Source: a virus. Taken from it: a DNA stretch of 64,000 bases. Under the pieces are notes generated by a model. That model was given only the letters and a program-made list of their open reading frames with translations. It was not told the DNA's origin and did not search any database. Shown here piece after piece: positions 1,862 to 58,805 of the stretch (within the stretch, counting starts at the first letter, position 1; each line of letters begins with the position of its first letter). Position numbers and translations under genes: made by a program. The stretch lies in the IMG/VR virus record IMGVR_UViG_3300030333_003061, positions 22,118-86,117 of that record; one strand, written 5' to 3'.

Positions 1862-3403
1862 TTATATCATCTCCATGAGGTTATCCAGCGTATCAATATC
1901 GGCAGGGTATTTGTCGCGTCTAATTCTCACGCATCGAGGGAATCTAAGTCCAATGTTCCCATCAGCGTCATTAGTCACCAAATCACAAGTCACTTCTAAA
2001 ACTACGCGAGGCAAGAAATAGTAAGTATCTCCTTCATAATAATCTACATTCTTTCTAAGTTCTAAAGTCAACGAATCTAAATCCATGTCAGAAAAGCCTG
2101 TTCCGACTTTACCAACACTAACATATTTATCACCATCTTTTACTGAGATACCATAGGTTCCATATACATTGCCTCTTTTGCCTTCACCATACTTTGCAGA
2201 TGTAATTACTACATCAACAGAGATACGAGGAGGTTTATATTTTAACCATCCTTTACTTCTCTTTCCAGGTTGATAGGCCATATCAGAATCTTTAATCATA
2301 ATTCCTTCAAATCCTCTATCAATTGCTATGTTATATGCTGATTGAATTGTGCCGTTATCAAATCGTTCTGCTCGAAAGTCAGGATAAACTGCACTATCTA
2401 AATACTCTACTCTTGTTGATAGTGGTTCATCTAATACTTCTGTTTCATTCCATTTTAATACATCAAATACTACCATGTATACAGGGCATTCTTCTACTGC
2501 TTTAGCCTTATCCTTTTTGTGAACTCTTTTACCTAACAATTTATGCTCGGCAGGAGAACCGTCTGGATTAACAGGATAGATTTCTGTATCATAAACACCA
2601 CTAACCTTAAAAACTTCATCGTTTAAAATCAATTCAACAATATCAGGATATTGCTCGGTCACAATTTTACCCTTTCTGTTGAAGATAATTACATTATTCT
2701 TTACATCATCCCAATGAATTTGGTATCTATTCCCATCATATTTAATATCAACAATATAATTAGTTGGTCTTTCTTTACCCTTTCGGGCCTTAGCCAACAT
2801 AGGATTAACAAATTGACCATGCGTTAATTTACATTCAGGCGGAACTCCCATTTCTAAAGAACCACATATTTCTGATGCAGAATTATAATCATAATACTTT
2901 TCAATATTACTATCACGGTAATATAATTTCATTGCCTTTAGTGGAACCTTATTGTTCACTCCATTTCTTGGTTTATGTAGCCAATATCTAAGGAACCATT
3001 TCTTTTCTCTAGCACTCATTTTGTTAAGTGATTCAGAAAATAAAGTATAAGCATCACTATTTAATCTGCTACAGTCTAATCGAAGTAATGATAAAAATTC
3101 AAGTAAAGTAATATCAGAATCTTTTTCATTTCCTGCATCTAACTCCTTGACTCCTTCTCCAATATCTCCCCATATACTTGTATAGGTTTCTATCTCATCA
3201 TCAAATACACCAAGAGCATTAGCAATCCATGTTGTTGCTCTTTTACTACCAATATTATTAATAGGATATTCTTGAGATAAAATTAAAATGAGTGATTCTC
3301 TACTATCAAATGTAGACATAGATTCAGATATTGTTTTAGCCTTCATCGTGGGCGTTTGGTTTTCTAAAACCTCACACATACGAGCAAACTTTGCTAGAGT
3401 CAT
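1862..3403 (-). CDS. lig: ATP-dependent DNA ligase (archaeal type)
   Basis: Motif I KYDGNR, III DTE, IIIa VFD, IV EGIMIK, V WLKYK, OB-fold VGTGFSD and motif VI LRFPR. Confidence 0.95.
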   Translation of the reverse strand: MTLAKFARMCEVLENQTPTMKAKTISESMSTFDSRESLILILSQEYPINNIGSKRATTWIANALGVFDDEIETYTSIWGDIGEGVKELDAGNEKDSDITLLEFLSLLRLDCSRLNSDAYTLFSESLNKMSAREKKWFLRYWLHKPRNGVNNKVPLKAMKLYYRDSNIEKYYDYNSASEICGSLEMGVPPECKLTHGQFVNPMLAKARKGKERPTNYIVDIKYDGNRYQIHWDDVKNNVIIFNRKGKIVTEQYPDIVELILNDEVFKVSGVYDTEIYPVNPDGSPAEHKLLGKRVHKKDKAKAVEECPVYMVVFDVLKWNETEVLDEPLSTRVEYLDSAVYPDFRAERFDNGTIQSAYNIAIDRGFEGIMIKDSDMAYQPGKRSKGWLKYKPPRISVDVVITSAKYGEGKRGNVYGTYGISVKDGDKYVSVGKVGTGFSDMDLDSLTLELRKNVDYYEGDTYYFLPRVVLEVTCDLVTNDADGNIGLRFPRCVRIRRDKYPADIDTLDNLMEMI

Positions 3404-7092: not shown

Positions 7093-8055
7093 CTATCCAT
7101 ATCTTACACCTGCTATAAATTGTTCTATTCTCATTCTCTTCAATTCTTTTTTGTTTGTATTTAAAATACCATATAGTTTTCTCATATTATCTCTTAGTCC
7201 TATTTCAGAGCATCCACAACTAGATGCTATTTCTGATTGAGTGTATTCTGGCCACCCGCCTCTTGTTCTCAATAAGCAAGTTATCCAGAATGATGCCGCT
7301 AAATGATTTTTAGAAAAATGCATATTTCTTTCAGTCACTTGAGTATAAACATATTCTGCTATAGTTCTAGTATCAGAAACAAATTCTCTTTCTCTAGTTT
7401 TTGTTCTGAATACATTAGACTGTTTTAATAAATCAACAGTTGCTTTTTCAATCATATTAGGTAAAGAATTCTGATGTAATAACCAAGGCTTCTTTAATTC
7501 TCTAGCAAAATATCTCGCTGCTTTTGATACAGATTGAGGGTTTTCACCATTATTCTTAGCAAGTTCTTGCAATGAAACAGATATACCATTTTCTTTTAGG
7601 ACTAAGAAAACTATTGCGGTTGCTCTAGTTCCTACTGTCCATCTGTAGGTATGTCTATCCTTAAAGAATGTTTTATAATAACTATAGGTTCTTTCCTTTA
7701 GATTATTATTAGGTAGCCATGGAGACAAAATCATATTACATTCTAGAATACCTTTACCCATATTCTTTATAGATTTATCTTGAAGCCAAGATTGATTTCT
7801 TCTTAGTCTAGAAACTAATTTCTTATTCATAGAAGAATCTACTGTTTGACCCATAATTGAACCCAATTCTCCTCTATCTCCTGAGCGAATAATTAATTCA
7901 CCATTTTCCATAGATACATTACTTACAGTTTCTTCAAATAAATGAGAAACCATTACATATCCACAGTCGGAACAAACTCTTTCACCTAACTTATCATCAA
8001 TATAGTTAGATTCACTTTTACATAAATCACATATCATCATGTTATCACAGCCCAA
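7093..8055 (-). CDS. tfb: transcription initiation factor IIB (TFB)
   Basis: N-terminal Zn ribbon CDLC...GERVCSDCGYV followed by two cyclin-like repeats ending TQSEIASSCGCSEIGLR. Confidence 0.85.
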   Translation of the reverse strand: MGCDNMMICDLCKSESNYIDDKLGERVCSDCGYVMVSHLFEETVSNVSMENGELIIRSGDRGELGSIMGQTVDSSMNKKLVSRLRRNQSWLQDKSIKNMGKGILECNMILSPWLPNNNLKERTYSYYKTFFKDRHTYRWTVGTRATAIVFLVLKENGISVSLQELAKNNGENPQSVSKAARYFARELKKPWLLHQNSLPNMIEKATVDLLKQSNVFRTKTREREFVSDTRTIAEYVYTQVTERNMHFSKNHLAASFWITCLLRTRGGWPEYTQSEIASSCGCSEIGLRDNMRKLYGILNTNKKELKRMRIEQFIAGVRYG

Positions 8056-16318: not shown

Positions 16319-16831
16319 TTAATCAACCTTCTCCCACCATTCGGGAACATTTGTTTTCCAATTTGCTATATGCTTTTTATCATGTATATAATACATACGA
16401 TATTTTTCGACAGTAGAAAGATTATCAAAATCTTCTATTTGTCGACATAGCATATTAGGTGCTATTGCTACAGCAAATGGAGTAAGTTGTGTATCGGGTA
16501 AATAATCAATTAATTTATTTACCTCGTCTTCTACCTTTTTAAAGGTCAGTTGGCATTTGTGAGTTTTATTATAACGGATAGTATATTCTTCACATAATGC
16601 TTTGAAGTGTTCTATAAGCCACATAAGATTCTGTCTAGATTTACCTGCCCATACAGTGCATGGATGTAAAGAATGAGACATACGATATGGGCCATTAAAA
16701 TTACGCAAAGTCATACAAGCAGAAATCATCTGCAGACTTTCTAATGGCATTTTAACTATATGCTTATCATTCATCATTTGGGCTGCTAATTTAGGGTTTT
16801 CATCTAATATAAATATATTCATTATTATCAC
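16319..16831 (-). CDS. pyrimidine-dimer DNA glycosylase (DenV/endonuclease V-like)
   Basis: MNIFILD.NP..AA...DKHIVKMPLE..QM and HPCTVW signature. Confidence 0.8.
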   Translation of the reverse strand: MIIMNIFILDENPKLAAQMMNDKHIVKMPLESLQMISACMTLRNFNGPYRMSHSLHPCTVWAGKSRQNLMWLIEHFKALCEEYTIRYNKTHKCQLTFKKVEDEVNKLIDYLPDTQLTPFAVAIAPNMLCRQIEDFDNLSTVEKYRMYYIHDKKHIANWKTNVPEWWEKVD

Positions 16832-17174: not shown

Positions 17175-17261
17175 TGGTTGCGAGGATGGGATTTGAACCC
17201 ATGAAGCACTACGCACAGAATCTTAAGTCCTGCTCCTTTGACCAAACTCGGATACCTCGCA
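17175..17261 (-). tRNA. tRNA-Leu (anticodon UAA) with encoded CCA
   Basis: Acceptor TGCGAGG/CCTCGCA, anticodon arm CAGGA-CTTAAGA-TTCTG, long variable arm, T arm GGTTCAAATCC, 3' ACCA. Confidence 0.9.
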
Positions 17262-17274
17262 TTAAAGAGTATAA

Positions 17275-17883
17275 TCACTCTTTCAACTGAACTAGAAGTA
17301 ATATCAAATAACCAATTAGGTCTTTGATTACATCTTCATCAGATTCAAGAATATCTTTACCCTGCATAAGTCTATTCAACTTATCATCAATTCTAACCTT
17401 AATCTGTTCTTGTGCATCAGACTTTGAAAAGATTCTAATTGGTGCAATTGCTGAATCACCATATGCTTCATTCTTCTTTAGAAGGAAATACATAATTGAT
17501 TTACATTCATTTTCTATTTGTCTTTGAGTGTTAGTCAATCCTTTACTACTTGTATGTAATACAACCTTTGTAGTAGGTTCCTTCTTTGATTTTGTTCCAT
17601 ATACATCATTAAAATCTTCAGCATATTGCTTATACAATTTCTTGTAATCAACTTCTTTCTTAACCTTTTTCTTTCTTCCTGAACCCTTACTTTTATGCTT
17701 GTAAGGTAATTCACCTTTCTTTTGAAGTGCGTTTATTTTCATATAACAAGCCGCACTACTTCGCTTCAATTTCTTTGCTATTACTGATACTGATGTTCCT
17801 TCATTGAACATTTCAATCAGTGTCTTTATATCTTTGTTTGTCCATTTTTTATTCATTTTAACACCTTTGTTAAATAACTCCAT
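17275..17883 (-). CDS. N-terminal HTH fused to a DUF1599/nucleotide-modification-associated-like domain
   Basis: KWTNKD...IAKKLKRS, then KKNEAYGDS...RIDDKLNRL...EDVIKDLIGY. Confidence 0.65.
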   Translation of the reverse strand: MELFNKGVKMNKKWTNKDIKTLIEMFNEGTSVSVIAKKLKRSSAACYMKINALQKKGELPYKHKSKGSGRKKKVKKEVDYKKLYKQYAEDFNDVYGTKSKKEPTTKVVLHTSSKGLTNTQRQIENECKSIMYFLLKKNEAYGDSAIAPIRIFSKSDAQEQIKVRIDDKLNRLMQGKDILESDEDVIKDLIGYLILLLVQLKE

Positions 17884-18055: not shown

Positions 18056-18646
18056 GTAGTATATAGATATAAGAATAATAAGAATATAATAAATATATAA
18101 TATCTTATCACTTATTCCTACTTTTCTGCCTAACTTCTTACCACTTATGTTTCTACCCCAAAGTAGAAACGAGAAACTGGGCAGATTCTAATCACTTTTT
18201 GGATGCCATATCAATATTAATATTAATATAGAATATTCAATACTGATATTGATAGTAATATAGAATATTAAATTAATATCTACTGACAAGAATACATGTT
18301 ACGGCAGTTACTGATTAACATTGTAACTTATTACGCCATTACATAGGTTTCATTCATATATTGATTAGGAATTAATCGCTTTCTTGAAGCAATTGTAGGA
18401 ATTGACTCTTACAGTATAAGGAGAGTCGTAGACACATATATACTGGCCGCCCTCGCTGATGGCCTGTGCGATATATAACGCAATTCCTTACCATATGGTA
18501 AGAATACTTTGTCATTGAATTACCTGAAAAAAGTGGAAAGGCCGAGAACAGGCGATACATCATGTAAATCATGTTGTAAAGTTTTATACGCCCATTCTCG
18601 ACCCTTCGCGTTAGTCAGCACCGAAAGAACTATTCAGGAGGAAGAA

Positions 18647-19150
18647 TCACTCCTCCTCCGTGTAATCATAATCGCCGCAATCAGCGAGTCCAGCAAGAGA
18701 ACCATCCCATTCTCCCTCTCGGAAGAGTTCTGTTGCTGCCTTTCGTGCCTTTGTTGCTAGGCTGTTTGCATAATCGTCTGCATCTACATATACAGGCGAA
18801 CCCTTTGATTTACCATGCTTTCTTAGCAATGGTTGGGAATATTGCTGTGTTTCTGTGAAAAAGGTGTGTGCTGCTGCACGAATCTCATCACAAGCCGAAT
18901 CTACTACTGCGCGAGCAGCAGCAGGTAAAATACCTTGATTTCCTCTCTTCCAAGGATAACCTGGGTATGGCTTTAACATTCCCTTAATTGAGGTAGTCAA
19001 AGACTCTCTCGTTCCTTCATTGTTATTTCCTGTTTCTACTAGCATTCTTGCTAGTGAAACTACATCTGATGGAATGGCCTGAACTTCGCTATCGCCGTCA
19101 AGCATTCCATTTACCTTTATTACTACTGAATCCCATTCAATTTGTTCCAT
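18647..19150 (-). CDS. hypothetical protein, HGKS-motif paralog 1
   Basis: GGTGAT RBS before MEQIEWD; aligns by eye with the 19646 ORF. Confidence 0.75.
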   Translation of the reverse strand: MEQIEWDSVVIKVNGMLDGDSEVQAIPSDVVSLARMLVETGNNNEGTRESLTTSIKGMLKPYPGYPWKRGNQGILPAAARAVVDSACDEIRAAAHTFFTETQQYSQPLLRKHGKSKGSPVYVDADDYANSLATKARKAATELFREGEWDGSLAGLADCGDYDYTEEE

Positions 19151-19199
19151 AATATCACCTTTGTTGTTTCTTCCTGAGCCTTTCGGGGCTACTATAGGG

Positions 19200-19248
19200 A
19201 GGATATGATACACATATAAAGGGGTCTGAGCAAAGTAGAACCATATGG
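19200..19248 (-). promoter_or_regulatory. cassette promoter (CCATATGG-TACTTTG...TATA-like)
   Basis: Minus strand CCATATGGTTCTACTTTGCTCAGACCCCTTTATATGTG; TATA-like box ~25 nt upstream of the inferred transcript start. Confidence 0.5.
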
Positions 19249-19545
19249 TAATGAAGTAATTTTAAGGTGGATTCTTGAAGGCTTAGGAAAAACGGGCGTT
19301 TTTATTCTCAGCATAGGTAATGAATCCGCACTTGTAGAACAGAGAGTGCTAATTAACATCGGTTATTTTTAACATAAATACTGTCTCACCTTTAGACAGC
19401 GTTAATTAACAACCATATGGTCTCATGGCAGCAAGTGTGCCATGAGAATGAAAGTATAGCGATAGCGTACTAAATATGCCTTAAGGTAGTCATTAATGAC
19501 AAATACGGCTTCGCCTTTATTGGTCATTACCATTCCCTTATGACA

Positions 19546-19605
19546 CCATATGGTAGCATACTTTGTGAAAACTACCTTATAGGTGTCTATAACATATCTA
19601 ATAAC
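19546..19605 (+). promoter_or_regulatory. cassette promoter
   Basis: TACTTTGTGAAAACTACCTTATAGGTGTCTATAACATATCTAATAAC; similar sequences occur at 21176 and 22930. Confidence 0.55.
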
Positions 19606-19645
19606 GGTGGGGCAACACCACAAAAAACACAAGGAAAGTGATATT

Positions 19646-20233
19646 ATGGCTGATTACAGTATGGAAGATAGTAAATGGAACGACAGAAAAGCGACTGTCG
19701 GGGCTTGGTTTGAAGCAAACCCCGATTTAGCCAAAGAGGAAGATAGAGAAGCCCTTGCAAACGGGTTTTTCCGAATTGGCGACAATTACCCAGAAAACAG
19801 AATGAAGTATTGGACTTCGATAACAAGTCTATTCGCTGGACTGAGTAATTCACCATTAGGGCCGGGCCGAGCATCAAACCTCACAGTAGCCCAAAAGTCT
19901 CAATTAGACCTATACATCTCTGAGTATGAAGAAGATGCAGTGGCGCAATATGAGTCAAACCCTAAATTGCGAGCAACCGCAAGACAACACGGAAAGTCTG
20001 GTGGTATGTTTTACCATCTAATGGAGAATGGAGCGCAAGAATACGCAAAGAGCGAAGCGAAGGCTGAGAGAGCATTCCTCATCAAGGCATTCAATTCCGC
20101 CCATAAGGGTGATAACGAGGCTATGTATCTATGGCCTACTATACCGTCAGAAGACGGTGAATCACAGATTCTGGACTTTAATGCTGATGGGTCGCCAAAT
20201 GTGACCTATGTAGCAATACAGGAGGAGGAGTGA
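19646..20233 (+). CDS. hypothetical protein, HGKS-motif paralog 2
   Basis: AGTGAT RBS before MADYSMEDSKW; RQHGKSGG motif shared with the 18647 ORF. Confidence 0.75.
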   Translation: MADYSMEDSKWNDRKATVGAWFEANPDLAKEEDREALANGFFRIGDNYPENRMKYWTSITSLFAGLSNSPLGPGRASNLTVAQKSQLDLYISEYEEDAVAQYESNPKLRATARQHGKSGGMFYHLMENGAQEYAKSEAKAERAFLIKAFNSAHKGDNEAMYLWPTIPSEDGESQILDFNADGSPNVTYVAIQEEE

Positions 20234-20258
20234 TTTAGTGGTTTGTTGCCCCACCACC

Positions 20259-20276
20259 ACCCTTCGGGGTCTTTTT
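20259..20276 (+). terminator. cUUCGg hairpin plus T-tract
   Basis: ACCC-TTCG-GGGT-CTTTTT; the same hairpin occurs at 21445. Confidence 0.6.
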
Positions 20277-21221
20277 ACAAAGTATGACCATATGGAACGG
20301 TTACCAAAGGATTTAGGGGTTTAATGCAATTAAATACTCCGTTGCGACTGATAAGGTAGCAATCTTTGGTTATAGTTCCTTAAGGTATGATAAAAATACT
20401 TTTTATTCTACCATATGGTCATGCGTTAGCATTATGACCAGACGGGGTGAATTTACGGAAAAGTATTGGATTCATATTATTATTGTAGTTATTACTTTTC
20501 AAGTAATCTTTTATTTTATTATTATGTGAATCATATTTTCCTATTACCATATGGTAGAGGGTGTCCTGTGGTATTTTTAGGTTTTTAATGTAATTAAATA
20601 ATCCGTCTAAAGACGATAGTATTGCAAAATACCTGTGGACACTTCGACCAGATGAGGATGTTAAAAAGAATTTTACACTACCATATGGATGATAGTCCCC
20701 GCAGCAACTTAAGGTGTCACTAAGTATCGGAGATACTTACTTATCTCGTATCATGTTCGCTTACTTTATTCAAAACTATATAATATTCATTATTATTATT
20801 TAACTAAAGCAACCTCTCATTCTTCTACTTCGTAGTAACTCGAACCATATGGTAATATGACAGATTGGCGCGAAAGTAATCATCAAAGACAATTGATTAC
20901 TGAGCATGGGCCAATCTAAATTAACCCCAGGTTGTGCTTCTAAACTTCTAATAACCACTCTCTGCTCCGTTGGAGAGTGTCTTCTATTCCTATCGTCATA
21001 TTTGTATTAGACGCTTAGAACCATATGGTCTGATAATAGGTTGAATCTCTATCAACTCTTTACAGTATCCCAAATGAGGATATTCTTCGTAGAAGCGAAA
21101 GACCCGACACTATCGTTCTTCGTAGAGTTAACACTCTTCTTTCACTTCTACTTCAGAATACACCATATGGTTCTATACTATGTGGAAGAACCTCATTAGC
21201 GTCTATATCATATCTATTAAT

Positions 21222-21462
21222 GTCGGAGGCATCCGGCACGATGTGGCTGAATAACACCCTTTCTAACGGTGTAAGGCATGATTATTGGGGTTTAGCGACC
21301 CACCGAGTCGGCTCGACTAAAGAGAAGGCAGGACAACGACCTTAGCGGGTTAATAATCAGTAGGGGCGAGTTAAGCGATATATTAACCAGTATAAAGTTA
21401 GAACTCATGCAACTTATAGGTGAGAGAAATCAAACCCTATCATCACCCTTCGGGGTTTTTTA
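21222..21462 (+). ncRNA. putative structured ncRNA (~240 nt)
   Basis: Preceded by the cassette promoter, followed by ACCCTTCGGGGTTTTTT, no ORF in the track, and internal stems (GTCGGA/TCCGGC, TGATTATT/AATAATCA, GTTAA/TTAAC). Confidence 0.55.
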
Positions 21463-22976
21463 ACAAAGTAGAACCATATGGTGGCAGTGCTGCATTTTAA
21501 TAGAATATTTAATGTAATTAAATTATGCGTGGCAAAATGATAATTATGCTTCAAATGACAGCATGCCGACCTGAAGGAATAGGGATGTTAAAAAGAATTT
21601 TATACTACCATATGGAACAGTGGAGAAACAGGAAGATATGCTTCTGCTTTATGAAGGTTAGTAATTAATGTAATTAATACAATATCTAGCATGTATAATG
21701 AGAATGAAATGACTCTGGGCTTCGTATGATAATAGAAGAACAGATTCATGAATGAACTTATATTGCGGTCATAAAGCGGAGCAGAGGCTTCGCTGTTTAT
21801 CCCTTGTTCCCTACCGCTTTTTACTCCCAAACTGAGGTTACATATAATCTACGAGATATTATCTCTGTTCGTTGCTCATTGCTACCATTCGACACTGCCA
21901 TTCATACTACTTATCATTGCACTCATTCTGTGTCTCATTATACCATTCGCTTAACGAACCCGTTATTAGAACCATATGGATGATAGTCCTTATGGGGGTT
22001 ATCCCCCTATCTCCAGCGAGATAGCCGAATTAAATGCAAAAGACTAAAGCCTCAAAGGAATGAAACTCAAGGGTTTCACCTGCCACAATAATCGTGGCAA
22101 GTTTCATTTCTTTTACATTTACCACTTCCATATGGTTCTGTGGTTTATTCATAGATAAAAAAGATGAGCAATAAACAACAATGTTTTGGTGCAGCAGCAC
22201 CAATAATGCTGCATAAAACTTGTTGTGCGAATCAAAACAATTAAAGAATAAATAGGTTGGATAGGGGTGAACCAGAAAACTTGCGGTATCAAGGGGCTTT
22301 TCGCTTATTAAAGGTATTCATTTCGCTGCGTATCCTTGCGATAAATACCATTAATTGCTGAATTATAAATAAATTATTAATAGTCGCCTCCTTGCTACCA
22401 TATGGCAAGGAGATGATAAAAAAAGGCTCTATAGGGTTACTCAACACTTAAGTAATCAATCAATCTTCATCTTCATCGTATAGCATTTTTTTATTACCTC
22501 CTGAAAGTCCCTATAGGGTTGCTCTTCCTACTGAAGCAACCATATGGTCATACAGTATATACTCTGACCAAAACCCAATGGGGTATATTACTTGTGATAT
22601 TGTCTTGTCTTGATGACATATTGACATTATTGCTATTTAGTTACATTATCACATAACCATATGGAAAGAAACATTCTACTGAGGACAAAGAATAATAGGG
22701 TGATAAGTAGAAACGATGGAGTTATAATAATAACATGGGTGTAGTGAGATGTTGTCTCTTCCCCTTTGGGGTTTAATATACTAATTACATTATGTATCTT
22801 ACCATATGGGTGATAATCCCCAGCAGCGGGTCTTTATCGAAACTTACCAATTAAAGTGCACACGCCGTTGTTTAACAACCCCACCTAACCAAGTGCAACT
22901 TCCTTGGTAAGTTTCTGACCATATGGTGTTACTTTGCTAAACACCCTATATTAGTGTCGTTTACTTATCTATTAAT

Positions 22977-23082
22977 GGTTGGTGGGTGAGAAAGGTGTTG
23001 ACTCCTCAATTCCATTCCATAAACGGCTGAATGGTCGTAGGAAATGGCTCTTTGGGTTGTAGTCCTGTTCTCACCCATCACC
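22977..23082 (+). ncRNA. putative small ncRNA (~105 nt) closed by a terminal stem
   Basis: Cassette promoter upstream; ends pair GGTGGGTGAGAA / TTCTCACCCATC. Confidence 0.5.
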
Positions 23083-23242
23083 GCTTGAATCTTGAGGCTC
23101 TTTACAAAGTTGAACCATATGGTAGAATACTTTGTCAATGATGCCTCAAGCGAGGACTTATTTCATTATGGGTGCTTTATTAAAGAACCCACATACAGGG
23201 CATTTACCGTAGAATTGCAATTCATAAGAGCATACCGTGCAT

Positions 23243-23509
23243 TTACTCACTATCTTTTTCATCTTCTATAACCTCCACTATCATATTTAACAATTCTTCA
23301 TAATCAAATGTTTCACTACAATTACTACAATAATATGACCCGAGTTCTGAATCTAAATAATCCGAATAACCATATTCTAACTGAAAGGAATCTTCTACTT
23401 TAATAGGGAAAACCTCAGTTATTTGAAATACTGTTTCTTCTAATTGTATATCACACGGTTCATTAGGGTCGCTCTTATCTGCTATCTTACATTGAAACTT
23501 ATATTTCAT
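23243..23509 (-). CDS. small acidic Cys-containing protein
   Basis: FQC...PC...YYCSNC; last gene of the 3-gene cassette. Confidence 0.6.
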   Translation of the reverse strand: MKYKFQCKIADKSDPNEPCDIQLEETVFQITEVFPIKVEDSFQLEYGYSDYLDSELGSYYCSNCSETFDYEELLNMIVEVIEDEKDSE

Positions 23510-23703
23510 TCCTCTTCACCTTCTATTACATCCATAATATCCCAATGCTTAAATTGATTATTATTAATATATGTCCAATCGGTTCTTTTGTCTATATTCT
23601 CTATACGATACAATAGAACCCCAACATCTGTCATTACTTCTTCTGTGACTATTACAATTCTATCATTATGCTTATTCTTTAATTTCATTCCTTCTTTAAA
23701 CAT
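23506..23703 (-). CDS. small hypothetical protein (SH3/KOW-like beta pattern)
   Basis: MFKEGMKLKNK...IVIVTE...LYRIE. Confidence 0.55.
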   Translation of the reverse strand: MFKEGMKLKNKHNDRIVIVTEEVMTDVGVLLYRIENIDKRTDWTYINNNQFKHWDIMDVIEGEEE

Positions 23704-23901
23704 TTACTCACCCGACTTCTCAATGTATTCATTCAATGCTACTGATAACTCAGTCATTACTGTGGATAGGTCATCACCAGATACTCTCAATTTATTTATT
23801 GCTAATACCAATGCGCTACCCGACTTCATATGTTTTAATTCAATAACATATTTAGGGTCATTTATTTGCTGAATAATAGTATTCGTTTCCTCAGTGCTCA
23901 T
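23704..23901 (-). CDS. small hypothetical protein
   Basis: Apparently leaderless first gene after the cassette promoter at 23905-23960. Confidence 0.55.
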   Translation of the reverse strand: MSTEETNTIIQQINDPKYVIELKHMKSGSALVLAINKLRVSGDDLSTVMTELSVALNEYIEKSGE

Positions 23902-24151
23902 GTTATAAGGAGAAAAGAAGACCCTTATGAGGTATTAGTAACAAAGTCTACTACCATATGCTTTGTGCGAATTTTTTTCTTTTTCTTTTAATGTGCGTTT
24001 TTTCTTCTCTTGGCTTAATATTTTAATCAGCAGAACTCAAGAATTATATGTTAGGCGTGTGTGGTATAGAATACAGACGGGGCTATACCTCAATTGTTGA
24101 TAATTAACGATAGAGAAAAAAACGCGCCCTGAATGTAAGGAGATACAGATA

Positions 24152-24307: not shown

Positions 24308-24405
24308 TATCTTATTCTGGGAATGCATTGAATAAAAGAAATAAAAAAACGCAAGTGGCAAATAAATTACGGGCCAAATTTTCGGTTTTAATGGTTGAAT
24401 ATATT

Positions 24406-24654
24406 ATGACATGGTATTCAGTAGTTAGGAAATCGTCTATAGGAGATAAGTTCCTTAAAAATAGAGTTCGTATATACTATGAAAGGTTAAGATTGGCTAA
24501 ATGGATTAGAGATATGGACATTAATAGGCAAAATAAAAGTATTACAGTATATGTATATCCTGATACCGTTGGATTATTAATTGGAATAAGAGGAGAAACA
24601 GTAAATAAGTTATCAGAATCCATGGGTTGGACAATTAATATTAGAGGAAGATAA
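24406..24654 (+). CDS. KH-domain protein with MxW tag
   Basis: Starts MTWYSVVRK; VYPDTVGLLIGIRGETVNKL is a KH GxxG loop. Confidence 0.65.
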   Translation: MTWYSVVRKSSIGDKFLKNRVRIYYERLRLAKWIRDMDINRQNKSITVYVYPDTVGLLIGIRGETVNKLSESMGWTINIRGR

Positions 24655-50427: not shown

Positions 50428-52944
50428 ATGGTTGAAACCGGAGTCTTTGTTGAGAAGAAAACAGGTGCTATGGCGAAGCGTGTCCTTGATTTTTATGAGG
50501 ATGTTCGCTATAAATATCTATCTGCTTTAGAGGACAAGAAAGAATACGGTAATGACTGGAAAAAGTCAATTAAGAAGATTAGAGAAGACTTTGATGGACT
50601 TGGAGATTTCAGCGCAGAAATGAAAAAATACCTTGATGAAGACAATGTATTCAATGATGAAGTTAATAATCCTGAATCGAATGCTGCTGAAAAATTATAT
50701 AATTCAATAAAAAGAATGCGCTTTAATTCAGATGAAATTAATGACCCCTTCGCTAAACAAATGGGAGATAAGGTTGTTGAAACACTTGTAAAGAATCCTT
50801 CTGTTTATGCTATGTTCATCCACTACGCTCTACGCGCACACGCGCACAGCATTAAAGAAGAAGCATGGAAAGCCCACGATTTGAAGCCGGATGAGATTAC
50901 ACAAGGGGCTAAAGGTTTAGACCTCAAATTAGAAGATATACCTCTTTATATTACTGAACACTATGGCGACAATGCAGATACTACTAGAGTTAAAGGTAAG
51001 TTTAATGGAGCATTAAAATTATTAGAAAAAGTATACATGGAAGAAAATACAAAAGATAATTGGGATGCGCTTTTAGCATTAGATATATCTAAGTCTGAAG
51101 ATGAGGATGATGATAAAGAAGAAAAATCAGAAATAGATTTTATTGTTCCTAATAAACCAATGTATAGAATATTTGAAATAGACGACATGAAAGAATTAAA
51201 AGGTTTTAGTGGAGAATACTTAGTTCAAGAAAAATTTGATGGTATTAGAATACAAATTCATAAGTCTGATAAGAAAGTTAAAATTTACACATATAATGAG
51301 AAAGACATAACTAATAAATGTAAGGATATTGTCGAAAAGGTAGAACAAAAAAGATTTGGCGATATGATATTAGATGCTGAATTAATTTTGTATGATGGCG
51401 ATGAACCTTTACATAGAGCAGATACAATAGCACATCTGTTTAAGGATAAATATAAAGATGCTACATTAAAGGCAAGAATTTTTGATATAATGAATCATGA
51501 TGGAAAAGACCTTACTGATTCTCCATTAAGAGAAAGAATAAATATTCTATTCTATCAGTTATCTCCTGGTTCATCTGATTTATTTAATTTCCCTTCAAAG
51601 AAAAACTCTAGGATTGCAGATTCATTAAGTGAAATAGAAAAATACGCTAAAGATATAATGGAATCTAAAACATCAGAAGGAGTAGTAATAAAGGACATAG
51701 AATCAACATACTATCTAGGTAATAAAAAGAATCCTAAGTGGGTTAAATGGAAGAAGTTCGTAGACTTAGATGTAATTGTATTAGATAAGAAAAAGACAAA
51801 ATCAAATCTTTATTCATATACTGTTGGTGTTGGCCCTCTTAGTGGTGAAGAAAGTAGGGAACACAATGGAACAGAATTTGAAGGAAAAACATATTTACCT
51901 GTAGGTAAAGCCCTTAACACTAAAGAGGTTGTTAGTATCGGTTCAATCATTAGAGTTAAAGTAGACGAAGTGAGAAGAAAAGGAACTGGATATAGTCTTT
52001 ATTCTGCAAAGGTAATTGAAATACCTGAAGTAGAAACACCAGAGAAACTTATTACTTTAGAATTATTATCAAAAGAAGGAAGAAAGTCTCTTAAGTATGA
52101 TGTTCAGGATGCTTTAACTAAATATACTATAACAGATGGAATTCATGGTGAAGCAGATATTATAATGAAATCAGATTATGAAGGATTTACTATCTATGGG
52201 TTTGAAGGAGATTCTTTAATGGAGAAAAATGCTTTAGCAGATATTGATTTATGGAAAGAACAATTAACGGAAATGATGAAATCTCATACATCTGATGCAA
52301 GAGTTGCAGTTAAAAACTTTTTAAGAAAAGAAGGAAAACCAATGGAAGTAAAAGACATATTTGAATTTATGTCTAAAGATAAACCAGAATTAGTAGAAAA
52401 ATTATGGGAAGGCAAAATGAATAAATTTACAAAATGGATGGATGATTATGATGATTTTATTAGAGTATCAGCAACTACATATAAAGATAATGAATTAAAA
52501 ATAATTAAAGACGATGAACCATCAGAAAAAGAAGGAAAATATAGATTATATGTTAGAAAAGATAATAACATAGAATTACTCATTAATTACAAAGGCAAAT
52601 CAATGGCATGGATAATTGATATTGACGACACAGAAGATATTTATAACTTATTTGGAAAAGCCGGTAAGTTTCCTGCTCAAGTCGCAGAAAAGAGTCAACC
52701 TGATAAATTATTAGATAAAGGAAATATAATATTGGGTGTCCAAAAGCATGGTTATCACGAATATAAAATAGACGGAGACAAATTTAAGACTAGACTTCAC
52801 TTTAGAGTTGTTCCTATCAAAGACGAAGATAAATGGATAGTATGGACAGGATTTAAACAGAAGATGCTAGATTCAAAAGAAGACAAAGGAATATGGGATA
52901 TTGCAGAAGACAGGCATAAAAAGTTAGCCATGCAAATCGCTTAA
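50428..52944 (+). CDS. second ATP-dependent DNA ligase-domain protein within the head module
   Basis: QEKFDGIRIQ, LDAE, IFDI, EGVVIKD, WVKWKK, an OB fold, plus extra N- and C-terminal domains. Confidence 0.85.
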   Translation: MVETGVFVEKKTGAMAKRVLDFYEDVRYKYLSALEDKKEYGNDWKKSIKKIREDFDGLGDFSAEMKKYLDEDNVFNDEVNNPESNAAEKLYNSIKRMRFNSDEINDPFAKQMGDKVVETLVKNPSVYAMFIHYALRAHAHSIKEEAWKAHDLKPDEITQGAKGLDLKLEDIPLYITEHYGDNADTTRVKGKFNGALKLLEKVYMEENTKDNWDALLALDISKSEDEDDDKEEKSEIDFIVPNKPMYRIFEIDDMKELKGFSGEYLVQEKFDGIRIQIHKSDKKVKIYTYNEKDITNKCKDIVEKVEQKRFGDMILDAELILYDGDEPLHRADTIAHLFKDKYKDATLKARIFDIMNHDGKDLTDSPLRERINILFYQLSPGSSDLFNFPSKKNSRIADSLSEIEKYAKDIMESKTSEGVVIKDIESTYYLGNKKNPKWVKWKKFVDLDVIVLDKKKTKSNLYSYTVGVGPLSGEESREHNGTEFEGKTYLPVGKALNTKEVVSIGSIIRVKVDEVRRKGTGYSLYSAKVIEIPEVETPEKLITLELLSKEGRKSLKYDVQDALTKYTITDGIHGEADIIMKSDYEGFTIYGFEGDSLMEKNALADIDLWKEQLTEMMKSHTSDARVAVKNFLRKEGKPMEVKDIFEFMSKDKPELVEKLWEGKMNKFTKWMDDYDDFIRVSATTYKDNELKIIKDDEPSEKEGKYRLYVRKDNNIELLINYKGKSMAWIIDIDDTEDIYNLFGKAGKFPAQVAEKSQPDKLLDKGNIILGVQKHGYHEYKIDGDKFKTRLHFRVVPIKDEDKWIVWTGFKQKMLDSKEDKGIWDIAEDRHKKLAMQIA

Positions 52945-58133: not shown

Positions 58134-58805
58134 ATGAGTATGCAATATAATCCTCCTTCATTAATTGGTGCTACTAATGCTACTGCTACTAATCCATTTT
58201 TACCACCAATTAAATTTGCTCGCGCTGCTGGCGGAGTAATGAATTATGATTATAAGAGTAACAAGCCAAAGAAACAAGTAAAAGAAATGATTTCTATTCT
58301 ATGGCCAGAAAAGAAAAGATTCCTTAAGATTCCATATGGGTTTAAATTCAATACAAGAGATAGATGTGTTGTTTGTGGAACTCATAAAAGATGGGATGCT
58401 TCTGACCCAATGAGGCCAACAATACCACTTCATAAAGTTAGAAAGGGTTATCCAATGAGAGGAACTTATTGTGATAAACATGCAGCATTACATAGACAAT
58501 ATGAAATGTTAGAACAACAAATAATAGCCGATGAACATGGCTTAGAATTTTCTTCATACATTCCTAAACCTAAAGTGCCTAAAATGTTGCAATCAGCACC
58601 GCTAACTTCATTAAGGCAATCCGATATCGAGGCATTGAGTGAGGTTGGCTGGACAATAAGACCCCCACAAATGCAATCAGAAACATTAGAAGATGAAATG
58701 TTTAGATTAACAATTGAAACTCAAGCAATTAATAGAAGAATATTAAAACTAATTACAGATGGTGCAGAAGTAATTCCTCAAAAAATCGAAGAGGAGGTAG
58801 AATAA
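58134..58805 (+). CDS. hypothetical protein with Zn finger
   Basis: CVVCG...YCDKH. Confidence 0.65.
   Translation: MSMQYNPPSLIGATNATATNPFLPPIKFARAAGGVMNYDYKSNKPKKQVKEMISILWPEKKRFLKIPYGFKFNTRDRCVVCGTHKRWDASDPMRPTIPLHKVRKGYPMRGTYCDKHAALHRQYEMLEQQIIADEHGLEFSSYIPKPKVPKMLQSAPLTSLRQSDIEALSEVGWTIRPPQMQSETLEDEMFRLTIETQAINRRILKLITDGAEVIPQKIEEEVE

Follow-up and report, generated by a model that had tools for sequence, protein, structure and literature searches.

PeSL (promoter-early stem-loop) cassettes are known from the hyperplastic regions of T4-type phages (Arbiol et al. 2010, PMC2839356; Comeau et al. 2014, PMC4122927). For the haloarchaeal myovirus HGTV-1, a conserved motif of TATA element and inverted repeat is reported before most ORFs of one part of the genome, likened by its authors to PeSLs and proposed to act in both transcription and shuffling (Sencilo et al. 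2013, as summarised in PMC3950731). In the crenarchaeal viruses SIRV2, SMV2 and SIFV2, consensus early regulatory sequences precede anti-defence genes, and some of these elements contain inverted repeats at the BRE which are thought to bind a repressor (PMC11065993).

The locus considered here belongs to a magrovirus, that is, an ocean-abundant tailed virus of marine group II archaea. Its genome (86,117 bp, 92% complete) comprises a 64-kb window, by which we mean the whole stretch of DNA that was analysed, and another 22 kb; the portal is halovirus-like, closest to those of haloarchaeal viruses, and the virus encodes a TFB homolog of its own as well as a pair of ATP ligases. Portal and TFB accord with transcription of the archaeal type. 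Within the window lies an array of a short palindrome, CCATATGG (usually ACCATATGGT), which, with a probability that we place at roughly 65%, forms the middle of a symmetric boundary element that separates self-contained expression cassettes.

With the PeSLs this array shares a short composite intergenic element of promoter and stem-loop, present in many copies across a variable small-gene block, such that each gene is a transcriptionally isolated module and the element marks the breakpoints of insertion, deletion and replacement between related viruses. The magrovirus promoter is archaeal, however, with a TATA-like box ~25 nt upstream of the start, whereas that of PeSLs is sigma-70; moreover, since its core is an invariant palindromic 10-mer with a hairpin on each side, the magrovirus element, unlike a PeSL, works in both orientations. 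It also differs in that whole-cassette inversions are common and in that the payloads of the clade are mostly gene-less folded units or RNA genes. We call the PeSL promoter/stem-loop cassette the nearest known kind and the magrovirus array a variant of it; the description of the array as a new repeat-unit system, as given in an earlier, sequence-only reading, was thus too strong in light of the PeSLs and of the PeSL-like motif in HGTV-1 (PMC2839356, PMC3950731). HGTV-1 is likewise a tailed virus of archaea in which a motif of TATA-like box and inverted repeat recurs, but this motif has no known sequence relation to ACCATATGGT, and the first 50 kb of its genome contains no over-represented palindrome. 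The crenarchaeal viruses, like the magrovirus, have a near-identical promoter region with conserved flanks ahead of many small, fast-evolving single genes, but their elements are directional, with no cassette inversion described at them, whereas the magrovirus joints are symmetric and stand at both ends of a unit. Integrons (attC) and shufflons are similar in being arrays of exchangeable units with imperfect-palindrome or hairpin borders at which reordering or inversion occurs; the magrovirus, in contrast, has no integrase or invertase, its core is fully symmetric and its arrays are stable at at least 95% identity. Furthermore, integron cassettes are promoterless, while magrovirus units carry their own promoter.

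The palindrome array and its units

The window contains 22 exact copies of CCATATGG, of which 21 lie at 18491-23122 and one at 58332, against a chance expectation of 0.81 (sd 0.88; maximum 4 in 100 dinucleotide shuffles). There are no additional copies in the remaining 22 kb, such that the genome-wide count is 22 in 86,117 bp. The cluster, its start-to-start spacings of 117-750 bp and the outlying copy, all reported from the sequence alone, were reproduced, as was the placement of the array where two gene arms diverge: both the coding strand and the GC skew switch there, the latter at its minimum. One-mismatch variants number 21 in 64 kb, which is the chance level, and conservation of the palindrome is therefore all-or-none. 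The site, usually in the longer form ACCATATGGT, is a 10-bp dyad of perfect symmetry that does not vary among copies or relatives. The unstranded copies are as follows.

18491-18498, copy 1; hairpin GGTAA..CTTTG..TTACC as right arm; pA cassette, 3' end
19241-19248, copy 2; left arm (CTTTG on the minus strand) toward the pA promoter
19413-19420, copy 3; exact match
19546-19553, copy 4; 5' boundary of the pB cassette
20288-20295, copy 5; 3' boundary of the pB cassette; left arm GGTC..CAAAG..GACC
20411-20418, copy 6; exact match
20547-20554, copy 7; exact match
20681-20688, copy 8; exact match
20845-20852, copy 9; exact match
21021-21028, copy 10; exact match
21163-21170, copy 11; 5' boundary of the manA-like RNA cassette
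21474-21481, copy 12; 3' boundary of the manA-like RNA cassette
21608-21615, copy 13; exact match
21972-21979, copy 14; exact match
22128-22135, copy 15; exact match
22398-22405, copy 16; exact match
22540-22547, copy 17; hairpins on both sides, GGTCA/TGACC and GGTTGCT/AGCAACC
22657-22664, copy 18; exact match
22802-22809, copy 19; exact match
22919-22926, copy 20; 5' boundary of unit 20
23115-23122, copy 21; CAAAG left, CTTTG right; 3' boundary of unit 20 and of the minus-strand three-gene cassette
23954-23961, one-mismatch copy CCATATGC; minus-strand reading GCATATGG and TAGACTTTGT; 5' boundary of the minus-strand three-gene cassette

Between these copies lie ~20 small units, made up of two protein genes, one manA-like RNA gene and many gene-less folded units.

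18647-19150, minus, gene pA, 167 aa; all-helical, acidic EEE tail; no known family
19646-20233, plus, gene pB, 195 aa; distant pA paralog (blastp E 8e-6)
20259-20289, plus, 3' module of the pB cassette; GC hairpin ACCC-TTCG-GGGT, then a T-run, then the CAAAG arm into the palindrome
20288-20418, unstranded, unit 5; homologous family with units 7 and 12
20547-20688, unstranded, unit 7; same family; possible minus-strand promoter after copy 8
21222-21450, plus, manA-like structured RNA; RF01745, 44 bits, E 4e-9, under the gathering score of 55.2
21474-21615, unstranded, unit 12; same family; minus-strand CC-CTATTC 23 nt after copy 13
21972-22135, unstranded, unit 14; gene-less, folded (z -3.8/-5.3)
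23243-23901, minus, three-gene cassette between copy 21 and the degenerate copy; ORFs of 88, 65 and 65 aa

Homologs of pA are present within most motif arrays. Apart from the pA and pB units, the array units contain no ORF of at least 60 aa, in keeping with the earlier description of the short units as non-coding; that nearly all of them are strongly self-complementary was overstated, since z is at or below -2 on one strand in 10 of 18 units. The folding is nonetheless stronger than in control segments, with a mean z for unit interiors of -1.96 on the plus strand and -1.81 on the minus strand, against -0.3 in control segments, and with five of the 18 at or below -3. Units 5, 7 and 12 have in common a covarying outer stem and a TTAATGYAATTAA hairpin, whilst unit 14 is kept in five relatives at 72-89% identity, in either orientation and at differing array positions, with one compensatory stem change among them. 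We think that the 16 gene-less units are small RNA genes or decayed cassettes.

The double hairpin and the RNA ends

The full element has the form [GGT..CAAAG..ACC]ATAT[GGT..CTTTG..ACC], with the palindrome at its centre. In other words, each arm, read outward on either strand, consists of a GGT-stem, a loop with CTTTG and a stem-ACC, and the stems covary. A Watson-Crick stem of at least 4 from the GG foot is present in 335 of 722 half-sites (50 of 722 when shuffled), and CTTTG lies in a hairpin loop in 311 of them (controls ~1%), with 66 different stem sequences. Of 224 promoter sides, 200 carry a CTTTG arm, as do 145 of the 181 gene-3' sides. In relatives the hairpin is followed by ACC-YTAWA, with the ATG of leaderless genes at +27 to +32 in 115 of 304 cases; ORF starts peak 47-48 nt past the motif and stops 30-60 nt ahead of it. 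The promoter modules in the window, together with one canonical hairpin on the minus strand, are these.

19552-19583, plus, pB promoter; hairpin GGTAG-catactttgtgaaaa-CTACC, then TATA-like TTATAGG
21169-21221, plus, unit 11 promoter; hairpin GGTTCT..AGAACC, TATA-like TCATTAG
22509-22541, minus, canonical hairpin GGTTGCT/AGCAACC and CTATAGGG, reading into unit 16; then only an 8-codon ORF
22925-22953, plus, unit 20 promoter; hairpin GGTGTT-actttgcta-AACACC and CTATATTA; start predicted by analogy at ~22975-22977

The unit 11 module has a conserved block at -21 to -1 in common with pB. Metatranscriptome contigs, which as assemblies resolve neither strand nor exact ends, start at 19606 (three runs, two samples) and 21222 (two runs, one sample), in each case 30 nt past the hairpin foot and 53 nt downstream of the palindrome. 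From these ends and the TATA-like box it follows that units have their own internal promoters. The contigs cover pA (18608-19176), pB (19606-20223, depth 189) and the manA-like RNA, leaving the palindromes uncovered; the only one to cross a palindrome (18445-18599) has a depth of 3 against 52 for the adjacent gene. The library may contain DNA, yet depth is zero on both flanking arms. Since just 11 of the window's 42 half-sites have the hairpin, five have CTTTG in the loop and ~5 the canonical CC-YTAWA box, the promoter model is demonstrated for the four long cassettes, not the 16 short units.

Excision of RNAs or ssDNA hairpins at the palindrome, as had been suggested, finds no support in these internal RNA 5' ends, and the palindrome does not act as an RNA cleavage site. 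What survives of the proposed modular library of structured RNAs is a conserved modular array with at least one structured RNA gene, the manA-like one; nothing supported a platform for replication, packaging or injection, and the view that the array is not CRISPR was upheld.

Shuffling among relatives and the rival explanations

Equivalent palindrome arrays are found at 68 IMG/VR and 39 metagenome loci, in many independent assemblies, such that the array is not an assembly artefact, and whole genomes of five relatives each carry a single 3.5-6 kb cluster of 8-23 copies. The comparison of relatives that the sequence-only reading had proposed came out positive: units are gained, lost, reordered and inverted, with breakpoints at CCATATGG. 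The flanks are collinear, but the pB and manA cassettes and unit 14 have been turned round or have changed place, and their ends fall 0-2 nt from the motif. In a comparison of 14 genomes, 47% of the ends of inverted blocks are no more than 3 nt away from a motif edge (null 2.4%) and 13 inverted blocks have all four ends on motif edges. All 17 array pairs from separate assemblies with at least 95% identity are collinear, so rearrangements are seen only at ~70-90% identity.

It is possible, if on balance doubtful, that the palindrome is chiefly the operator of a putative dimeric regulator encoded by the virus, whether Aca-like repressor or activator, with shuffling as a by-product; such a regulator would jointly switch the whole early or anti-defence cassette block, and is compatible with a boundary element. 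The perfect invariant dyad, with its one-mismatch variants at chance level, accords with an operator, as do the restriction of the motif to one gene block per genome just upstream of promoters, the HTH protein (17275-17883) which adjoins the array and is collinear in relatives, and the regulatory sequences that archaeal viruses place before small early anti-defence genes (PMC11065993). It also counts against the boundary element that an 8-mer conserved without exception is more than a terminator or a joint for recombination would seem to require; this points to a putative protein that binds it specifically. However, the spacing between palindrome and TATA-like box differs by over one helical turn (hairpins are mostly 19-30 nt), which argues against a phased activator site; the site is found equally at gene 3' ends and between gene-less units, and the stem covariation speaks for a nucleic-acid structure and not only a duplex site.

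Dedicated site-specific recombination of the shufflon or integron kind, in which a recombinase that escaped recognition would cleave at the symmetric core and rearrange units during infection, we consider unlikely. Breakpoints do fall exactly at the core, whose symmetry would permit both inversion and excision, its conservation is all-or-none, and the covarying arms resemble attC and REP sites; but no tyrosine or serine recombinase, Y1 transposase or Hjc was found in the 92%-complete genome, the closest arrays are collinear, and the arms differ more in sequence and spacing than a classical recombinase site would allow.

More improbable still is that the repeats are origin-recognition sites (ORB-like iterons) of a viral replication origin. 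The CCA..TGG dyad may loosely resemble ORB cores. The array does sit at the GC-skew minimum and strand switch, and magroviruses encode an archaeal-type replisome (PMC5434244), but the coding-strand change explains the skew switch equally well, and the repeats keep to the edges of genes, with TATA-like boxes and start codons at set distances; they extend over 3.5-6 kb, are interspersed with expressed genes and number 8 to 23 among relatives.

That the palindromes pair in a long precursor RNA or ssDNA, their 8-bp stems being unit excision sites, is barely credible: every copy can pair with every other, RNA processing and circularisation at helices occur in archaea, one RNA run has a circular unitig (21314-21448) and mismatches on the CTTTG strand are G.T in 17 cases against A.C in 5, but the RNA contig ends lie inside units, the circular junction is off the palindrome, the sole crossing contig is shallow, and each strand bears units that have TATA-like boxes and T-runs of their own.

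Proposed working of the boundary element

At the 5' end of a cassette, the foot of the hairpin (ACC) abuts an archaeal TATA-like box, YTAWA. If the palindrome is the centre of a symmetric boundary element, transcription by the archaeal RNA polymerase of the host, presumably assisted by TBP and TFB, the latter perhaps the virus's own, would start ~28-30 nt past that foot. On the 3' side a GC hairpin and T-run would be followed by the mirror-image arm. With this layout each cassette would have its own start and stop signals and inverted arms at both ends, and the double hairpin may insulate neighbours both ways, as a terminator/attenuator or as the site of a dimeric protein. The array cassettes occupy the variable region between the diverging replication arm and structural arm of the magrovirus. 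Since the joint is symmetric and is the sole sequence common to all of them, recombination there, probably by general (RadA-type) machinery and not by a dedicated enzyme, can invert, move, delete or insert cassettes intact.

The palindrome array and the virus that carries it

The 21 copies of the 8-bp palindrome CCATATGG that the sequence-only reading had reported are reproduced exactly, both in their coordinates (18491-23122) and in their spacings. The window contains 22 copies in all, the other lying at 58332, and the remaining 22 kb of the 86,117-bp IMG/VR record, of which the window is bases 22118-86117, are without a further one. In dinucleotide shuffles of the window 0.81 copies are expected on average and never more than 4 are found, and CCATATGG is the commonest 8-bp palindrome of the genome, even though it is 50% G+C in a genome of 33% G+C. 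The majority of copies extend to the 10-bp dyad ACCATATGGT, and one-mismatch variants of the 8-mer are no more frequent than chance. Such all-or-none conservation of the 10-mer suggests a putative specific binding protein. An operator role for the palindrome is therefore compatible with the reading preferred here, in which each copy forms the centre of a boundary element, and the two may coexist. Restriction-site avoidance was rejected, CATATG occurring 24 times outside the motif against ca 29 expected.

Both GC skew and coding strand switch at the array. This position would favour an origin built on archaeal ORB repeats, which flank an AT-rich unwinding element and are bound by Orc1/Cdc6; the geometry of the array relative to the genes argues otherwise, and the origin model fits poorly. 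Nor is the array a CRISPR, as had already been recognised. Set against direct repeats of 23-50 bp with short unique spacers and cas genes or a leader, the repeat is a palindrome of 8-10 bp, the units (unit n being the stretch between copies n and n+1) are of 117-750 bp and include expressed genes, and Rfam scans give no CRISPR family. An array of tRNAs or other known RNAs was likewise rejected, since ARAGORN, and Rfam at its gathering threshold, gave only a tRNA-Leu(UAA) at 17175-17261 (minus strand), just to the left of the array. The earlier view that nearly all units are strongly self-complementary is overstated: on average the unit interiors fold better than controls (z of -1.96/-1.81 against -0.3), but only about half of them are individually notable.

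The closest cultured relatives of the portal protein are those of the haloarchaeal siphoviruses HCTV-5 and HVTV-1 (31% identity), followed by that of a Methanomassiliicoccales virus; no DNA similarity to cultured phages was found. An ORF at 7093-8055 (minus strand) encodes a TFB/TFIIB homolog (320 aa) that has both a zinc ribbon and a cyclin core. A profile built from its family finds human TFIIB (E 1.7e-8) as well as the core and zinc ribbon of Pyrococcus TFB. This protein, which could redirect the host RNA polymerase to viral promoters, has just 13 homologs among 5.8 billion proteins, all on related marine contigs. Two ligase genes are present:

1862-3403, minus strand, ATP-dependent DNA ligase
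50428-52944, plus strand, larger ATP-dependent DNA ligase (838 aa), in the structural arm just 3' of the portal gene

Halovirus-like morphogenetic genes together with two ATP-dependent ligases, one inside the structural module, are the hallmark of magroviruses (PMC5434244), and the position of the larger ligase in the structural arm agrees with magrovirus groups A and B. By its portal and its two ligases the virus is thus a magrovirus, that is, a virus of marine group II archaea. Portal kinship, TFB homolog and ligases together make the archaeal transcription machinery the relevant one.

Several other genes lie beside the array. Adjoining it, and collinear in relatives, is a putative regulator of 202 aa (17275-17883, minus strand) with an N-terminal GcrA/MerR-like HTH seen in matches to PDB profiles; its C-terminal domain is strongly conserved, with YGDS...RIDDKLxR...DLxGY motifs, and matched no family. 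All of its 802 homologs are unnamed, and no recombinase domain was detected in it. Also just to the left is a pyrimidine-dimer DNA glycosylase (16319-16831, minus strand; PF03013, E 1e-9), and the second ORF of the plus arm beside the array, a 108-aa protein at 24328-24654 (plus strand), has a weak KH-domain match (PF07650, E 1e-4) and is a possible single-strand nucleic-acid binder.

Architecture and transcription of the proposed boundary element

A pattern scan of IMG/VR gave 68 loci with the motif, mostly in clusters of 4-23 copies, and a protein-guided scan of metagenomes gave 39 additional loci, many holding 15-22. In the whole records of five relatives, three of them 100% complete by CheckV, a single cluster of 3.5-6 kb holds every copy bar at most one. 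Among the matches listed from 596 Gb of cellular genomes the full dyad occurs singly, at about the number expected by chance on a rough estimate, and no locus has more than three copies of CCATATGG.

In relatives whose units bear ORFs, start codons peak sharply 47-48 nt 3' of the motif, and the peak of stop codons is 30-60 nt 5' of it. The order of elements is a GC hairpin with a T-run; GGTnnn..CAAAG..nnnACC; ATAT; GGTnnn..CTTTG..nnnACC; YTAWA; ca 25 nt; ATG. In other words, the 8-mer has ATAT at its centre, with the foot (the GGT/ACC base) of one hairpin to the left and that of another to the right. An uninterrupted Watson-Crick stem of at least 4 bp from the GG foot is present at 335 of the 722 half-sites, each being one arm of a palindrome, compared with 50 in shuffled sequence and with 17% of GGT sites elsewhere, and CTTTG is found in the loop at 311 of the 722 (controls ca 1%). 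Stems of at least 5 bp have 66 different sequences; since the left and right stems of one element are unlike each other, covariation occurs within each hairpin. The hairpins vary in length, mostly between 19 and 30 nt, and the part downstream is fixed, ACC being followed by C/T-T-A-T/A-A, with an ATG at +27 to +32 in 115 of 304 cases. This is the spacing of an archaeal TATA box that serves leaderless mRNAs.

Over all loci, the CTTTG arm stands at both ends of ORF-bearing cassettes, cassettes being units with their own expression signals (200 of 224 promoter sides and 145 of 181 3' sides), and at only 30% of half-sites facing units without an ORF. In this window the hairpin is present at only 11 of 42 half-sites and the CTTTG loop at only 5, most short units being without a CTTTG hairpin. 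Stem mismatches are asymmetric on the CTTTG strand (G.T 17 against A.C 5; G.A 25 against C.T 5), which, with small numbers and base-composition skew as a possible confounder, hints that the hairpin forms in a single strand, either RNA or unwound DNA.

The best-supported reading of these features is that the symmetric boundary element makes each unit a self-contained module that works in either orientation. A promoter would lie at one end of the unit and a terminator at the other, with inverted arms bracketing it, and we infer from the PeSLs of T4-type phages, by analogy, that the double hairpin would attenuate read-through from both sides. Moreover, because the core is identical on both strands, the element would also be a joint for the exchange and flipping of modules.

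Two other promoter types were considered and dropped. A Bacteroidota promoter (TAnnTTTG) was the first idea for the TACTTTGT flank, and was abandoned once an archaeal host was indicated by the portal, by the TFB homolog and by the RNA starts; a T7-like single-subunit RNA polymerase promoter for the conserved -21 to -1 block of units 4 and 11 was set aside as no such polymerase is seen and the block is common to paralogous units only. Separately, mini-hairpins such as GGC-ATTAA-GCC, in which a covarying 4-bp stem containing G+C closes a loop of ATTAA/TTAAT, occur in the related arrays L067, L069 and L010 and in others, as well as at 21669-21681 here; they are about six times commoner within arrays than outside (1.80 against 0.29 per 10 kb).

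Contigs from one study (two samples, four metatranscriptomic runs) represent parts of the array. They include pA, the gene of unit 1 (contig 18608-19176, depth 52), pB, the gene of unit 4 (19606-20223, depth 189), and unit 11 (contigs from 21222, depth up to 632), and depth is zero or near zero over most of both flanking arms. A contig starts exactly at 19606 in three runs from both samples and exactly at 21222 in two runs from one sample, each position being 30 nt past the hairpin foot and 53 nt past the palindrome; these assembled contigs fix neither strand nor exact ends, and a 5' loss of 1-3 nt would move the start to the ATG position of leaderless relatives. The palindromes thus precede the transcripts and are not at RNA ends, and one of them is crossed only by a low-depth contig (18445-18599, depth 3). 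This tells against the earlier proposal of RNAs cut out at the palindrome, as both contig starts are internal to units and neither is at CCAUAUGG, and such an RNA-processing model fits poorly. On the short units at 20342-21009 and 21678-23013 the four runs gave no contigs, which are a kind of data unable to show absence.

In one RNA run (X5) a circular unitig of depth 119 covers 21314-21448, its sequence passing from 21448 to 21314 with a 30-nt (k-1) overlap. It could represent the 3' part of the RNA of unit 11 in the form of a 135-nt circle, or an artefact of assembly or reverse transcription; its junction is not at a palindrome. The 5' leader (19606-19621) and 3' trailer (20238-20255) of the pB mRNA have the potential for a 16-bp duplex (cofold -36.9 kcal/mol), and a weaker equivalent joins 19150-19195 with 18600-18649 in the pA mRNA (minus strand; -27.6 kcal/mol). 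These could be end-to-end closing stems, of the kind that archaea use for RNA processing or circularisation.

Contents and shuffling of the cassettes

The two genes of the array, pA (18647-19150, minus strand) and pB (19646-20233, plus strand), are paralogous (blastp E 8e-6), and most loci with the motif carry members of their family, often more than one. The proteins have an acidic tail and are modelled as all-helical (pLDDT 84); searches of Pfam, PHROG, PDB sequences, Foldseek PDB/BFVD and Atlas gave no lead to function, and peptide patterns of pB had no match in IMG/VR. Unit 11 matches the manA RNA model RF01745 with 44 bits (E 4e-9; gathering score 55.2), position 1 of the model match being 21222, and the arrays of five relatives hold full-length matches of 39-50 bits. 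As these scores are significant and below the curated cut-off, unit 11 is treated as a divergent relative of manA.

Units 4, 11 and 20 have a common promoter block. In unit 16 a canonical hairpin plus CTATAGGG on the minus strand leads into just eight codons, and mini-ORFs sought downstream of canonical promoters did not fall into any clear class of micro-proteins. A covarying outer stem is common to the homologous units 5, 7 and 12, and unit 14 is kept at 72-89% identity in five relatives with one compensatory change. The units are mostly unconserved even where the pA of relatives is 90% identical, and the short units of the window have almost no BLAST matches among IMG/VR relatives, so that closer relatives from metagenomes had to be used.

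When loci are oriented by pA, the two flanking arms are collinear and the cassettes are not. The expectation that relatives would differ by reordering and inversion with breakpoints at the palindrome is borne out, alignments ending 0-2 nt from it in both genomes. Thus, among the related loci (L-numbers), inversion affects the pB cassette in L196 and L199 (it is direct in L200 and L202), the manA cassette in L196, L193 and L229, and unit 14 in L200 and L202; in L202 unit 14 also lies at the opposite end of the array. Between L196 and L199 (86-89% identity) several blocks of one to three units are inverted, with ends on palindromes. Of 202 intra-array alignments across 14 genomes, 58 are inverted, 47% of the ends of inverted blocks are within 3 nt of a motif edge (2.4% expected) and 13 inverted alignments have all four ends on motif edges. 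Array pairs of at least 95% identity from separate assemblies are collinear in all 17 cases, and no tyrosine recombinase (PF00589), serine recombinase (PF00239), Y1 transposase (PF01797) or Hjc resolvase is detectable in the genome. For these reasons the shuffling is read as occasional recombination on an evolutionary time scale, and not as programmed switching.

Known systems and the meaning for magroviruses

The nearest likeness is to the PeSLs of T4-type phages, composite promoter/stem-loop elements of hyperplastic regions that mediate modular shuffling (PMC2839356, PMC4122927). Recombination between adjacent PeSLs also gives excised mini-circles. The magrovirus element similarly joins a promoter to a stem-loop, the foot abutting YTAWA and RNA 5' ends or ATGs lying 27-32 nt on; it is concentrated in one block of variable units of 3.5-6 kb per genome, and breakpoints between relatives fall within it. 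PeSLs, however, contain a sigma-70-like early promoter (-35/-10, AT-rich upstream), whereas here there is an archaeal TATA-like box ca 25 nt upstream of the start. Given this promoter type and the TFB homolog, the element works like a PeSL and is not a member by descent. Within archaeal viruses, a TATA-plus-inverted-repeat motif of the halovirus HGTV-1 has been reported and likened to PeSLs (PMC3950731), and crenarchaeal viruses have conserved early regulatory sequences 5' of anti-defence genes (PMC11065993). From all three the magrovirus element differs in its invariant palindromic core, the hairpin on each side, the frequency of whole-cassette inversion and, in this clade, a mostly gene-less cargo that includes an RNA gene. 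The first 50 kb of HVTV-1 and HGTV-1 contain no equivalent palindrome arrays.

Integrons have the IntI tyrosine integrase and promoterless cassettes expressed from a common Pc, whereas here PF00589 has no match and cassettes have their own promoters. Shufflons and invertases depend on Rci tyrosine or Hin/Gin serine recombinases, neither of which was detected (PF00589, PF00239), and here arrays of at least 95% identity are collinear; REP/BIME with RAYT and IS200/IS605 have a Y1 HUH transposase that recognises hairpins, and PF01797 has no match. The magrovirus literature searched makes no mention of the motif, or of a promoter, palindrome or other cis-regulatory signal, and the top-ranked literature matches to the 10-mer include no relevant paper.

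A bolder proposal, which we consider improbable, is that the double-hairpin palindrome is the recognition site of a structure-guided recombination or insulation machinery of archaeal viruses that keeps a plug-and-play library, the cargo in this clade being mostly small non-coding RNAs (manA-like and hairpin RNAs) and not proteins. The pA/pB family, always found inside arrays, would be a candidate part of such machinery. If true, the system would resemble an integron whose cargo is RNA genes, possibly for anti-defence RNAs.

In the surface ocean magroviruses rank with the most abundant viruses of archaea and, to our knowledge, neither they nor their hosts have been cultured. The element supplies a promoter architecture, with starts supported by metatranscriptome contigs, for magroviruses and by implication for marine group II archaea, and clusters of ACCATATGGT are a simple sequence handle for locating the variable early/accessory block of magroviruses in metagenomes. 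The element is also a clear archaeal counterpart of PeSL-type modular shuffling, its symmetric joint letting cassettes work both ways round. Moreover, the gene-less cassettes, including the conserved manA-like RNA, suggest that part of the accessory cargo is RNA which, if true, would also account for some of the manA RNAs labelled 'uncultivated marine'.
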